From Bacteroidaceae bacterium (GTDB lineage: Bacteria; Bacteroidota; Bacteroidia; Bacteroidales; Bacteroidaceae), in the NCBI GenBank assembly GCA_017524545.1, contig JAFXVN010000040.1, positions 50,985 through 74,984 on the forward strand: a stretch of DNA of 24,000 nt, in the 5' to 3' direction. The translations under genes were made by a program, and so were the position numbers. Within the stretch, counting starts at the first letter, position 1, and every line of letters begins with the position of its first letter. Positions 12,310 to 23,499 of this stretch are shown here, piece by piece. The notes beneath the pieces are model-generated. The model was not told the DNA's origin, searched no databases, and was given only the letters and a program-made list of their open reading frames with translations.

Positions 12310-12367
12310 CTCTGCAATTTACAATTTGACGATTTACAATTTACGATTTATTTGTCGATTGGGCTAT
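12310..12367. repeat. Intercistronic AT-rich heptamer array (pyrG stop to purF GTG)
   Basis: The minus strand reads ...AATCGTA AATTGTA AATCGTC AAATTGTA AATTGcagagGTG. It is preceded by the CTATTTA G CTATTTA duplication that spans the pyrG stop. Confidence 0.85.
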
Positions 12368-14050
12368 TTAGCTATTTAGGCACGCCTTGATAAAGCTCAT
12401 AAAGAGCGGATGCGGGTGCAGTACTGTCGAGGTATATTCTGGATGGAACTGCGTGCCAATGTACCACTTCAGCGATGGAATCTCGACTATCTCAACGAGG
12501 TTCGCATCGGGATTGATGCCCACACACCTCATGCCAGCCTTCTCGTATTCCTCCTGATACTTGTTGTTGAACTCATAGCGATGGCGGTGACGTTCGCTGA
12601 CAATCAATTTTTCACTTTTCACTTTTAACTTTTCACTTTCATAGGCTTGAAGGGCTTTGCTTCCCTCCTTCAACTCACATTCGTACGCTCCAAGTCGCAT
12701 CGTGCCGCCCATTTGCGTGATGCTCTTCTGCTCTTCCATCATGTCGATGACGTTGTGAGGCGTTTCCGAGTCCATCTCACTACTGTTGGCATCCTTGTAG
12801 CCAAGGACATTCCGTGCAAACTCAATCACCATCATCTGCATTCCGAGGCAGATGCCGAAGGTTGGGATGTCGTGGATGCGGGTATGTTCGGCAGCAATAA
12901 TCTTGCCTTCTATGCCGCGCTGACCGAAGCCCGGACAGATGACGACACCTGCCATCCCTTCCAATCGTGAGGCGACATTCTCCGTTGTCACCTCCTCGCT
13001 ATTGATGAAATGAATCTTTGCCTTCACATCGTTGTAGATGCCAGCCAGGTTGAGGCTCTCGCGGATGCTCTTGTAGGCATCCTGCAGGTCGTACTTGCCG
13101 ACGAGGGCGATGCTTACCTCGCGCTTGGCGTTGCGCTGCTTCTCCAGGAAGTCACGCCAAGGCTTCATGGCTGGCGTTTCACCTACAGGGATGCCAATCT
13201 TGCGCAGGATGGCGGCATCGAGGCCTTGCCGCTGCATGTTCACCGGCACCTCATAGATGCTGGGCATGTCCTCGCTCTGCACCACGCACTCAAGATCCAC
13301 ATTGCAGAACCCCGCCACCTTCAGGCGCAATGCGTCATCAAGGTGGCGTTCTGTACGGAGCACGAGGATGTCGGGCTGAATGCCCATGCCTTGCAGCTCC
13401 TTGACGGAGTGCTGCGTGGGTTTCGTTTTCAGTTCATCGGCAGCCTTCAGGTAGGGAACGTATGTCAGATGCACACAGACAGCATCTCTACCCAGCTGCC
13501 AGCGAAGCTGACGGATAGCTTCCATGAACGGCGCACTCTCAATGTCACCAATCGTGCCACCAACTTCGGTTATCACAAAATCAAGGCCCCCCTCTTGTCC
13601 CCCCAAGGGGGGATGATTAGGTGAGTAGGTCTCCTCCCCCTTGGGGGAGGTTGGGAGGGGGCTCCTTAGCATCCTCCTCTTTATCTCATCCGTGATGTGA
13701 GGCACCACCTGGATGGTCTTGCCCAGATAGTCGCCACGGCGCTCACGGTCTATGACGGTCTTGTAGATGCGGCCTGTCGTAATCGAGTTGTTGCGGGTGG
13801 TGCAGATACCGGTGAAGCGCTCGTAGTGACCGAGGTCGAGGTCCGTCTCCATACCGTCTTCCGTCACATAGCACTCGCCGTGCTCGTAGGGATTGAGCGT
13901 GCCTGGGTCGATGTTGATATAAGGGTCGAACTTCTGAATCGTGACCTTGTAGCCTCGAGCCTGCAACAACTTGCCGATACTTGCGGATATAATGCCCTTA
14001 CCCAACGAGGAAACCACACCGCCTGTGACGAAAATGTATTTTGTATTCAT
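12368..14050 (-). CDS. pyrG: CTP synthase
   Basis: The start was chosen at [19 protein letters not shown]. It has [11 protein letters not shown], the GATase triad region GICLGMQ, and RHRHRYEFN. It carries two in-frame repeat modules, at 13586-13663 and 12605-12637. Confidence 0.93.
12605..12640. repeat. Heptamer tandem (AAAGTGA-type) embedded in frame in pyrG
   Basis: The minus strand reads GAAAGTG AAAAGTT AAAAGTG AAAAGTG AAAAATTG. It encodes [11 protein letters not shown] directly upstream of the conserved [11 protein letters not shown]. Confidence 0.8.
13586..13663. repeat. GC-rich palindromic composite embedded in frame in pyrG (78 nt, 26 codons)
   Basis: 13631-13663 is CTCCTCCCCCTTGGGGGAGGTTGGGAGGGGGCT. 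13586-13612 is a diverged inverted copy, GCCCCCCTCTTGTCCCCCCAAGGGGGG. The composite encodes [26 protein letters not shown] between the conserved [12 protein letters not shown] and [14 protein letters not shown]. Confidence 0.9.
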
Positions 14051-14739
14051 TGTATTGAGAATGATAATCCAAAGATAAAATATAACTTGCCAGAGCATGG
14101 ATTAGAGGTCAGGCAGACATAGACGGGCAGGTGGTACTTCTGCTTGATGACGAAGTCCTTCGTGGCTCTGAGCGAGACGTTGGTGCAGGCAAAGTCGTGT
14201 GTGTCGTAGCTCGTCGTGCGCCAGGGAACGATTCCGACTGTGCCCGTCCAGTCGAGCTTCGCCAGGCGGAAAGGTGCTTTCAGTTCGAAATAGCTGCTGT
14301 AGGCGCGTTTGCCACTGCTGTTCAAGCCGTCGTTACCTGCGAAGTTCGTGTACCAGGTGGCAGAGAGGAAGCCGAAATCGTAGCCTACGAAGCCCTCCCA
14401 GATGTGGGTGGTCTTGTGGGCGTGGTACTGGAAGTAGCTGCCCTCGGAGAACCAATAGTCGTTCACACCCACGCTGAAGCCTTTCGTCTCGTACTTGAGC
14501 GTGAAGTCCAGCTCCTTGTCATCCTCGGCACGGCTGATGCCTACGCTGCCCCAGGCCGTGAGGCTCAAGCCTTTGTAATCAATGCCGAGTGTGGGCTGGA
14601 GGCTGACGTGGCCGAGGTCCTGACCGCGCCAGATGTACTGGCTCACGAGGTCGGCACCGATAGTTGCTTCTATTTTGTCTTTTGCGCTCGTCGTGGCCAT
14701 ACCGACCAAAGATAGAGCTATAATGAATAATCGTTTCAT
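14047..14739 (-). CDS. Putative outer-membrane beta-barrel porin associated with amtB
   Basis: The start was chosen at [19 protein letters not shown]|KD (signal peptide). The sequence shows an alternating beta-strand pattern with aromatic girdles and a C-terminal LYFIFGLSF. The upstream part of the 437-aa ORF overlaps amtB out of frame and was discarded. The stop overlaps the pyrG ATG (ATGA). Confidence 0.6.
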
Positions 14740-14745
14740 GTGGAA

Positions 14746-23411: not shown

Positions 23412-23418
23412 TAAATTT

Positions 23419-23492
23419 GACAATTGGACAATTTACAATTGGACAATTGCCACAAAGAAATTGTAAAATTGTGAAATCGTAAAATTGTAAAA
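23419..23492. repeat. Segmented AT-rich hairpin plus octamer array between gltB and gltD
   Basis: The left arm has ACAATT four times (23420-23448) and the right arm AATTGT/AATCGT four times (23459-23488), with a 10-nt loop. The right arm runs into AAAATATCAAG ATG (gltD). Confidence 0.85.
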
Positions 23493-23499
23493 TATCAAG

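Follow-up and report, generated by a model that had tools for sequence, protein, structure and literature searches.

Heptamer and octamer arrays at operon junctions of a Bacteroidales lineage as candidate leaders for Shine-Dalgarno-independent translation initiation

Introduction

Direct repeats of the heptamer TAACTGA are known from marine Beggiatoaceae, some cyanobacteria and five Bacteroidetes (MacGregor 2015, PMC4679880). They end about 1 nt before start codons, the largest class lying 1 nt away (PMC4679880). The heptamers of the cyanobacterial STRR family have been suggested to act in transcript stability or in translational coupling (PMC2670836). Here, we describe AT-rich arrays of 7–8-nt units at the operon junctions of a 24,000-nt stretch of DNA from a Bacteroidaceae bacterium (GenBank assembly GCA_017524545.1, contig JAFXVN010000040.1, positions 50,985–74,984), hereafter called the window, whose own numbering we use. 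A preliminary description of this sequence had recorded the arrays as an element without described counterpart, a statement that does not stand in view of the TAACTGA heptamers (PMC4679880) and the STRR family (PMC2670836).

In Bacteroidota, the determinants of translation initiation include A at positions −3, −6 and −11 to −14, low structure and depletion of AUG (PMC6847099), and an A-rich non-Shine-Dalgarno motif of the TAAAAA type is found 3–9 nt from the start of both first and internal genes (PMC6028130). In the S. copri transcriptome, no consensus ribosome-binding site was seen, and the word "repeat" is absent from the main text of that report (10.1101/2024.04.05.588293). Start choice without Shine-Dalgarno pairing is partly understood in these bacteria, and internal cistrons have hardly been addressed. 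Further background is provided by small palindromic dispersed repeats, which include REP/REPIN, ERIC and MITEs as well as the Rickettsia palindromic elements.

Results

Arrays are present at all six non-overlapping junctions of the two divergent operons that make up the right half of the window, glnK-amtB-porin-pyrG-purF and dapF-dapL-gltB-gltD. Tandem Repeats Finder (TRF) assigns them a period of 7–8 nt and 3.6–5.0 copies. As a chance test, self-match at lags 7 and 8 was compared with that of composition-preserving shuffles. This yielded P ≤ 0.001 at five junctions; for dapF>dapL, P was 0.03 for the 3′ part and 0.0015 for the entire gap. The 60 nt upstream of glnK, the 60 nt upstream of dapF and two co-directional gaps in the glycoside-hydrolase half (GH16>acetyltransferase and GH2>GH51) are aperiodic at lags 7 and 8 (P = 0.12–0.90). 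The 3′ ends of the arrays lie 0–7 nt from the next start codon, or about 10 nt at amtB>porin, and the stop codons of pyrG (after …CLNS), amtB (after …CYNS) and dapL (after …ANKL) are embedded in periodic sequence. These results bear out the observation of the preliminary description. Within the window arrays, the units are 75–92% alike (TRF), and many arrays are better described as an a-b-a-b-a succession with a double unit of 15–16 nt, present in 2.1–2.6 copies with 88–100% identity.

Three of the junctions are on the minus strand. The pyrG>purF spacer (12310–12367) carries about five units of AAATCGT, AAATTGT and AAATCGTC in mRNA sense and ends 5 nt before the GTG of the purF-like gene. The array proper (12315–12350) can be read with period 7 in 5.0 copies or with period 15 in 2.3 copies (95%), has P < 0.0005 and a fold z-score of +0.23, and contains the dispersed core AAATCGTCAAAT. 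Next to it, a two-copy 8-nt mini-array (12363–12379; GCTAAATA in mRNA sense) contains the final pyrG codons and the TAA stop. The amtB>porin spacer (14740–14785) is built from AATTCAT and AATTCAC (P < 0.0005; predicted minimum free energy (MFE) −0.5 kcal/mol, z +1.0), its array (14747–14780) having period 7 in 4.9 copies with the amtB stop (14772–14774) inside. At glnK>amtB (16032–16075; P = 0.001, MFE 0), 4–5 units of the AAAAAGT/AAAAGGTT type extend from the glnK stop to the amtB ATG; TRF reports this array at 16031–16075 with a period of 8–9 nt and about four copies.

On the plus strand, two copies each of ATTGTAAA and ATTGTCAG fill the dapL>gltB spacer (18821–18856) between the dapL stop and the gltB ATG (P < 0.0005, z +1.2); the array has period 8 in 3.9 copies, or a 16-nt double unit in 2.1 copies with 100% matches. 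The two remaining junctions each possess two arms. In dapF>dapL, a sense array of AAATCGT/AAATTTGT units (17630–17655; period 7, 3.6 copies) ends 7 nt before the dapL ATG, and an array of reverse-complement type (17479–17513; TATTTAC/TTTGACG, 4.9 copies) overlaps the dapF stop (17490–17492). Similarly, in gltB>gltD, a sense array of AAATTGTA/AAATCGTA units (23458–23493; period 8, 4.5 copies, P < 0.0005) ends 6 nt before the gltD ATG and is accompanied by a reverse-complement-type array (23414–23449; AATTGGAC/AATTTAC, 4.6 copies) that begins 3 nt past the gltB stop. These reverse-complement arrays at or just past the upstream stop had escaped the preliminary description.

The distribution of the arrays was examined in 80 dapL-centred loci from species representatives, with genes called by a codon model that reproduces the gene map of the window. 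The 1.23 Mb of related loci contain 196 period-7/8 arrays, 92 of which end between −12 and +40 nt from a predicted start, mostly at −2 to +9; these positional statistics rest on our own gene calls and on dapL-locus junctions that are largely orthologous. In the close clade (35 loci), an array occupies 50 of 121 co-directional gaps of 15–60 nt (41%) and 15 of 60 gaps of 61–150 nt, versus 1–3% of promoter-side regions (2 of 78 divergent ones). In more distant Prevotella, Bacteroides and Alloprevotella, 1 of 71 gaps of 15–60 nt carries one. The autocorrelation of close-clade spacers peaks at lags 7 and 8 only (0.38 and 0.37 versus about 0.30), and the density of arrays in the clade is about one per 2–5 kb. 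Arrays are also found at 10 of 41 junctions before genes without a homologue in the window, and the unit families upstream of dapL vary by species, including ATAACGN, ACTCAGA, GAAAAGT, AGATTAG and AAATCGT. The arrays are a property of the lineage, not of nitrogen genes.

The commonest unit family is AAATNGT, which has a recurrent 19-nt core, AAATCGTCAAATNGTAAAT, and a module whose internal order, …AAATNGT AAATCGTC AAATNGT AAAT, is conserved. The core was found at different junctions of 14 out of 84 loci, at least 120 metagenome contigs from the rumen and the human gut contain it too, and loci L002, L030 and L041 share an identical 33-nt arm. The notion that every junction has its own unit variant, produced by local expansion, is for this reason half right: a module of about 33 nt (…AAATCGTCAAATNGTAAAT) is shared by many loci and many genomes. 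Among the matches listed, 88 of 133 are followed by an ATG that opens an open reading frame (ORF) of at least 60 residues, and these 88 ORFs represent 54 unrelated gene families, making the metagenome sample a more independent test than the dapL loci. Pfam searches with ten of the families identified an NUBPL iron-transfer P-loop NTPase, a dUTPase, a PALP pyridoxal-phosphate-dependent enzyme (TrpB by sequence), a SIS-domain protein (MurQ by sequence), ParB, RfbC (dTDP-4-dehydrorhamnose 3,5-epimerase), an ABC-transporter ATPase, TsaE, UDP-galactopyranose mutase and an FtsW/RodA/SpoVE protein; inspection by eye recognised gltD, a gene for type III glutamine synthetase, a purF-like gene and several trp genes in the set as well. 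In one metagenome contig (L144), a TrpG-like anthranilate synthase component II (L144_4953) has an internal run, RSEGLGTREEGLGISDEGLGGKDYEG, that resembles an in-frame repeat insertion.

The spacing between this module and the start codon is not continuous. Among the matches listed, the distance from the last AAAT to the ATG is 3–4 nt in 12 families and 6–7 nt in 26, and never 1, 2 or 5 nt. In the same set, a long upstream ORF ends within about 200 nt in 64 of the 88 cases and is missing in 24, several of which sit behind Bacteroidota-type promoter boxes; arrays therefore also appear to occur in primary 5′ leaders. The AAATNGT family is strongly oriented, with 122 sense versus 28 antisense arrays in co-directional gaps. 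Even where a region exceeds 60 nt, most sense arrays end no further than 10 nt from the start, and convergent regions contain three AAATNGT arrays only.

Start-adjacent arrays also stand apart in composition. They are GC-poor with 48% A and 31% T in mRNA sense, versus 35% A and 35% T in other intergenic arrays, and an ATG is found inside 12% of them versus 21–38% for the other classes. Of the start-adjacent arrays, 59% have a stop in each of the three frames; for short gaps the value is 72%, versus 43% in shuffles of the same composition. Initiation regions (−35 to +15) with arrays are the least structured, with a mean predicted folding energy of −1.96 kcal/mol versus −2.97 kcal/mol in array-free gaps of the same size. 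The last TAAAT or TAAAA unit lies 3–4 or 6–7 nt from the ATG (among the matches listed), and the phase of the A-runs differs from the canonical −11 to −14.

Four short junctions of the window have predicted folds of 0 to −8 kcal/mol with z-scores of +0.2 to +1.2 and are essentially unstructured. For the two long gaps, the inverted arms are predicted to form long imperfect hairpins, with −38.9 kcal/mol (z −2.2) for the whole dapF>dapL gap and −23.2 kcal/mol (z −3.6) for gltB>gltD; inverted arms at other loci reach predicted values of −63 to −72 kcal/mol. Such arms lie end to end in 45 of 234 co-directional gaps of 70–300 nt. In these 45 gaps, the 5′ arm begins a few nucleotides past the stop and the 3′ arm ends a few nucleotides before the start. 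Four species retain the gltB>gltD pair. In long gaps, the antisense partner may couple or gate initiation, may be a processing site, or may represent no more than the second arm of an inserted palindrome.

The size of the arrays is remarkably uniform. Period-7 arrays have a length mode of 32–35 nt and period-8 arrays of 36–39 nt, whereas arrays of other periods decay in number from the detection limit. In an unbiased close set, chains of AAAT at 7–8-nt spacing with 3, 4, 5 and 6 members occur 20, 16, 24 and 0 times, respectively. The median array length of 32–34 nt is alike in the start-adjacent, stop-adjacent, other intergenic and coding classes, so that a size of about five units looks like a property of array generation rather than of the retention site. 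In array-rich contigs, 0.86 Mb contains 382 period-7/8 arrays, which have many different unit sequences and frequently form inverted pairs. Period 7 predominates among all tandem repeats of these contigs, with 367 TRF rows versus about 40–50 for periods 10–11. Among the four assemblies that are 99.9–100% identical to the window there are no array indels that would indicate phase variation, and the metagenome copies display one single-unit difference (L181 versus L099, L114 and L155). Hypervariable, phase-variable contingency repeats were ruled out by the 75–92% likeness of the units and by the lack of indels between strains.

Very long heptamer and octamer arrays of up to 25 units, together with inverted pairs, also occur away from start codons, with units such as TTTCCCCG, ACCATTT and TTCATTC. 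These long, GC-richer arrays were observed in L094 (3188–3314 and 3584–3710), L103 (563–713), L104 (1556–1639), L022 (1824–2002) and L031 (15730–15884). Their position away from starts suggests that heptamer amplification is genome-wide in these organisms.

Heptamer arrays are also found inside genes, a location that the preliminary description had missed. In the purF-like gene, an inverted 7-nt pair (11980–12057, minus strand; ATAATTG in 5 copies and CATTATC in 4.6 copies on the plus strand) constitutes a 78-nt, 26-residue in-frame loop insertion that most orthologues lack. In pyrG, a 7-nt array (12599–12640, minus strand; GTGAAAA in mRNA sense, 4.4 copies) is an in-frame insertion common only to the closest relatives.

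The same operons carry inserted sequences of a GC-rich kind. A GC-rich palindrome with the core CCCCCTCCCAACCTYCCCCAAGGGGGAGG is present in three copies with 0–1 mismatch, at 13586–13666 in pyrG and at 20580–20621 and 20730–20771 in gltB; shuffles give none. The copies are in frame in housekeeping genes, encode SPLPT(S/F)PKGEE or, reversed, LLPLGG.(R/E)GG, and are missing from most orthologues. The pair of copies in pyrG folds with a predicted −44 kcal/mol, and the two gltB copies are complementary across 150 nt (−101 kcal/mol for 192 nt). In the pyrG, purF, dapL and gltB orthologues of loci L001–L034 (e.g. L011, L015, L026, L027 and L029), surface loops are hot spots of lineage-specific in-frame insertions, whose recurrent peptides STPLAHGRGVGGEA, TPSLQGRAGG and LTPSPSPKGEG are translated GC-rich hairpins, a behaviour that recalls the Rickettsia palindromic elements. 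Between cistrons, a GC-rich inverted-repeat cassette occurs in dapF>dapL of L007, L010, L027, L032 and L034 and in dapL>gltB of L011, L026 and L030. It appears to bring its own stop (…TAATTACCT…) and its own ATG, and the downstream enzyme gains an N-terminal extension from it, e.g. MGNNQMANHTTPLHTREGQGGG. A "stop and restart" insertion is a possible description of this cassette. Another kind of repeat altogether is found at 7172–7311, where tandem repeats of 21 nt (4 copies, TATTATCAAGCCTTGAAAATA) and 22 nt (2.2 copies) lie 5′ of a DUF234/ATPase gene (7480–8793).

Other classes of signal were sought at the junctions. A whole-window scan with Rfam 15 covariance models gave no junction match up to E = 1, and a sigma-70 promoter scan was uninformative for Bacteroidota. 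Intrinsic terminators (a GC-rich stem followed by a U-tract) were absent at the arrays; a single weak site was obtained at 17592–17607, and the total was at chance level. This site, a terminator-like hairpin (CGCGACTACAATCGCG plus a T-rich tail), is placed midway in the dapF>dapL gap of 170 nt, and a TAAATTTG unit of the dapL-proximal array (17636–17643) also fits the Bacteroidota −7 promoter box. Together, the two features suggest that dapL-gltB-gltD might have its own promoter.

Independent gene calls concur with the gene map of the preliminary description. On the minus strand lie glnK (16064–16411, stop 16064–16066), amtB (14772–16031), a gene for a 230-residue signal-peptide protein (14047–14739; the "porin" of the preliminary description), pyrG (12368–14050/14098), which overlaps the stop of the preceding signal-peptide gene, and the purF-like amidotransferase gene with its GTG start (10510–12309). 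On the plus strand are dapF (16671–17492), dapL (17663–18829), gltB (18855–23411) and gltD (from 23500). The signal-peptide protein, encoded downstream of the glnK-amtB pair, is conserved and has no Pfam or NCBIfam match. In the source contig (L081, 16801 onward), a type III glutamine synthetase gene follows shortly past gltD, behind an acetyltransferase gene. Genes for glycoside hydrolases, together with unrelated ones, occupy the left half of the window. A 186-kb metagenome contig (ENA ERZ27256873) includes the entire window at 100% identity, and three other assemblies match it at 99.9%. Its closest species representatives are metagenome-assembled genomes of uncultured rumen Prevotellaceae/Bacteroidales, with DapL identities of up to 89%.

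Discussion

We propose, with a probability of roughly one half, that the arrays serve as leaders with a reiterated A-rich motif, from which translation, mainly of internal cistrons, is initiated without Shine-Dalgarno pairing. From their position, orientation, composition, spacing, restriction to one lineage and lack of predicted structure, we infer that ribosomes or S1 may use them. A ribosome landing pad was one of the options raised in the preliminary description, and it is favoured by the anchoring to start codons, the sense bias, the A-rich and ATG-poor composition, the predicted absence of structure and the preferred spacers. A-richness, low structure and scarcity of ATG match published Bacteroidota determinants. 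An array would supply 30–40 nt of A-rich RNA with little structure and few AUGs, with TAAA-type A-runs every 7–8 nt, the last one 3–7 nt from the AUG. Its usual three-frame stops would keep the upstream coding sequence and stray frames from interfering. A 30S subunit with S1, or a ribosome that has just terminated upstream, could load on the array and find the next AUG. The period and the size of about five units would probably not be a requirement of the ribosome; they look like the mark of a process at work throughout the lineage, which would generate heptamer or octamer modules of five units everywhere, genes included. Of these modules, selection would keep the A-rich, stop-rich orientation beside start codons. 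In long gaps, the reverse-complement copy after the upstream stop could pair with the leader, and might make initiation at the downstream gene depend on translation of the upstream one or flag the RNA for processing.

Several observations weigh against this proposal. In more distant Bacteroidales, spacers free of arrays are just as unstructured and A-rich (−2.40 kcal/mol), so periodicity is not needed for the proposed function, and the idea that an unstructured leader requires it was rejected. In genes with arrays, A peaks at −8/−9, −16/−17 and −24, and the last TAAA is 7–8 nt from the ATG. This phase is mostly shifted by 3–4 nt from the canonical −11 to −14, a peak at −12 to −14 being present only in non-array genes of the same loci; that the terminal unit is a canonical ribosome-binding site at canonical spacing is thus only partly true. 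Arrays inside coding sequence and in other places have this size too, which implies that size and period reflect origin and not fit to the ribosome. Three-frame stops are missing from 28–41% of the arrays; being enriched but not universal, they were dropped as the explanation but count as one property that contributes. In the clade of the window, few arrays precede first cistrons, which a generic enhancer would not predict. Among the mismatches in the arms of the 45 inverted pairs, G·U is no commoner than A·C (57 versus 66), on which account we do not claim a selected RNA helix, and covariation was not found for gltB>gltD, where the four species are too few and too similar and offer one double change. 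Finally, the statistics from related loci depend largely on orthologous junctions and on our own gene calls.

The arrays could instead be a tolerated by-product. A lineage-specific mutational or mobile process would make five-unit modules and inverted pairs of them throughout the genome, and those in intercistronic gaps would persist only because a stop-containing duplication leaves both adjacent proteins unaltered; the arrays would then have no role of their own. We regard this as the chief competitor, if on balance a somewhat unlikely one. It accounts well for the genome-wide over-representation of period 7 in array-rich contigs (367 TRF rows versus about 40–50), for the GC-richer period-7 arrays unlinked to starts, for the equal size in the coding, stop-adjacent and other classes and for the in-frame insertions in loops of pyrG and purF. 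It also fits the turnover of unit families between species at the same junction, the more distant relatives that do without arrays, and the hairpin arms that lack an RNA-level signature. It explains less readily why, in regions longer than 60 nt, sense arrays are anchored 3–7 nt from the ATG and not at the stop, why start-adjacent arrays are compositionally distinct, A-rich and ATG-poor, and why the same module sequence is kept over many loci and genomes. Among the matches listed, moreover, 24 of 88 lack an ORF in the 200 nt upstream and lie in apparent 5′ leaders, several of them behind promoter-like boxes, and the distance to the ATG is quantised over 54 independent gene families. A broader and more doubtful reading would derive the arrays, their inverted partners, the pyrG and purF insertions and the GC-rich palindromes from one lineage-specific process that writes or mobilises modules, the A-rich orientation having been recruited as a "stop and restart" cassette that would delimit internal cistrons and load ribosomes without Shine-Dalgarno pairing, possibly via an RNA-binding protein with a 7-nt register. 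The process might then be a new mini-element or a templated repeat-synthesis or repair pathway.

A trans-acting reader of the arrays that sets the translation of many cistrons, be it a multi-domain or multimeric single-strand RNA-binding protein (e.g. of the cold-shock OB-fold type, with about 7 nt per monomer) or a complementary small RNA, seems improbable to us. It would give meaning to a module of about five units with conserved order upstream of many unrelated genes, to its fixed unit number and fixed distance to the ATG, and to the complementary copies that exist in cis and could exist in trans; S1, Csp and CsrA have been suggested in this sense for the TAACTGA repeats (PMC4679880). However, AAATNGT, ATAACGN, TGAAAAN, AATTCAT, AAAAGGTT and ACTCAGA units occupy the same position, which argues against one sequence-specific reader; the same architecture is found in coding sequence and other places, and we identified no candidate factor. 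Lower still in our estimate is a function in processing, stability or coupling, in which the long AU-rich duplex between cistrons would be an RNase III cleavage site, shield the upstream segment, or hide the downstream leader until a ribosome that terminates on the upstream gene opens the base of the stem. Such a function would apply mainly to the long hairpin forms, to which any RNase or stability role would be confined. The end-to-end arms in 45 of 234 gaps of 70–300 nt, predicted folds of −23, −39 and −63 to −72 kcal/mol and the retention of the gltB>gltD pair in four species speak for it, as do the same roles suggested for STRR hairpins between hupS and hupL (PMC2670836). Yet four of the six window junctions and most arrays have no partner arm or predicted structure, the arms display neither a G·U excess nor covariation, and gap-filling arms are also expected from a palindromic element inserted in a very short gap. 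Most improbable of all is a DNA or RNA cis-element of a nitrogen regulon, one of the options of the preliminary description. In its favour are the arrays at all six non-overlapping nitrogen-operon junctions and their absence from two junctions in the glycoside-hydrolase half. In related loci, 54 of 136 nitrogen-gene junctions carry arrays versus 10 of 41 others, in a comparison of non-independent orthologous junctions. Arrays avoid the promoter regions of glnK and dapF, their units differ between junctions and species, and among the matches listed they precede 54 unrelated gene families, dUTPase, ParB, FtsW and TsaE included. In view of these families and the 10 of 41 non-nitrogen junctions, nitrogen specificity was rejected.

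To our knowledge, neither the STRR heptamers, described since 1990, nor the TAACTGA heptamers, described in 2015, have been subjected to a functional test, and most of their hosts are hard to work with. The clade of the window includes cultured rumen isolates (e.g. Prevotellaceae bacterium KH2P17, locus L013), and arrays also occur in contigs from human-gut metagenomes; the existence of isolates would permit unit number, orientation, phase and partner arm to be varied in reporters. If the arrays are loading sites, they would be a ready-made part for tuning expression within Bacteroidales operons. If they are not, they would be a marker of a repeat-generating process that reshapes housekeeping proteins too.

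Comparison with known systems

In their overall layout, the arrays resemble the TAACTGA repeats. These form tandem sets of 2–6 heptamers, and the arrays here have 7–8-nt units with a mode of 4.5–5 copies; in both systems, the repeats stand predominantly in forward orientation just upstream of start codons. Both contain stops when read forward and are translatable in reverse, occasionally lying inside ORFs, and both lack predicted RNA structure when alone and any functional bias of the downstream genes. A translational role was suspected but unproven for TAACTGA (MacGregor 2015). Here, on the other hand, there are several unit families with 7 and 8 nt mixed and none is TAACTGA: no TAACTGATAACTGA was found in the window, with up to two mismatches allowed, or in 204 loci. 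A strong bias to internal operon junctions, a characteristic size of about five units, frequent reverse-complement partners that yield hairpins, and a host group of rumen and gut Bacteroidales of the Prevotella group further distinguish the present arrays.

With the STRR family, the arrays share 7-bp units in several families, a non-coding location that includes intercistronic sites, and the capacity to form hairpins, for instance between hupS and hupL. The two differ in phylum and unit sequences, STRR being cyanobacterial and the present units being AAATNGT, ATAACGN, AATTCAT and others from rumen Prevotellaceae/Bacteroidales; the comparison with STRR covers period and location. We know of no report of start-codon anchoring or of a five-unit size for STRR.

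The published non-Shine-Dalgarno motif of Bacteroidota is likewise A-rich and of TAAA type, lies a few nucleotides 5′ of the start, goes along with low structure and AUG depletion and is found before internal operon genes. It consists of a single A-run at about −11 to −14 (Baez 2019, PMC6847099; GeneMarkS-2 group B, PMC6028130), whereas the runs described here are repeated about five-fold and mostly phased 3–4 nt closer to the start. As in MITEs and REPINs, the long forms are inverted pairs of arms of about 33 nt in transcribed intergenic space (45 of 234 gaps of 70–300 nt), and near-identical arms are dispersed over different loci and genomes, the 19-mer occurring in 14 of 84 loci and at least 120 contigs; in contrast to those elements, the arms are tandem heptamers and usually occur singly, and no target-site duplication or associated transposase was identified, in an analysis that made no search aimed at either. 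The in-frame insertion of array pairs and GC-rich palindromes into housekeeping genes is reminiscent of Rickettsia palindromic elements. Taken together, the arrays share their period, position and orientation logic with the TAACTGA and STRR heptamers, and what is new here is the unit sequences, the mixture of 7 and 8 nt, the five-unit size, the operon-internal bias, the inverted partners and the host clade.

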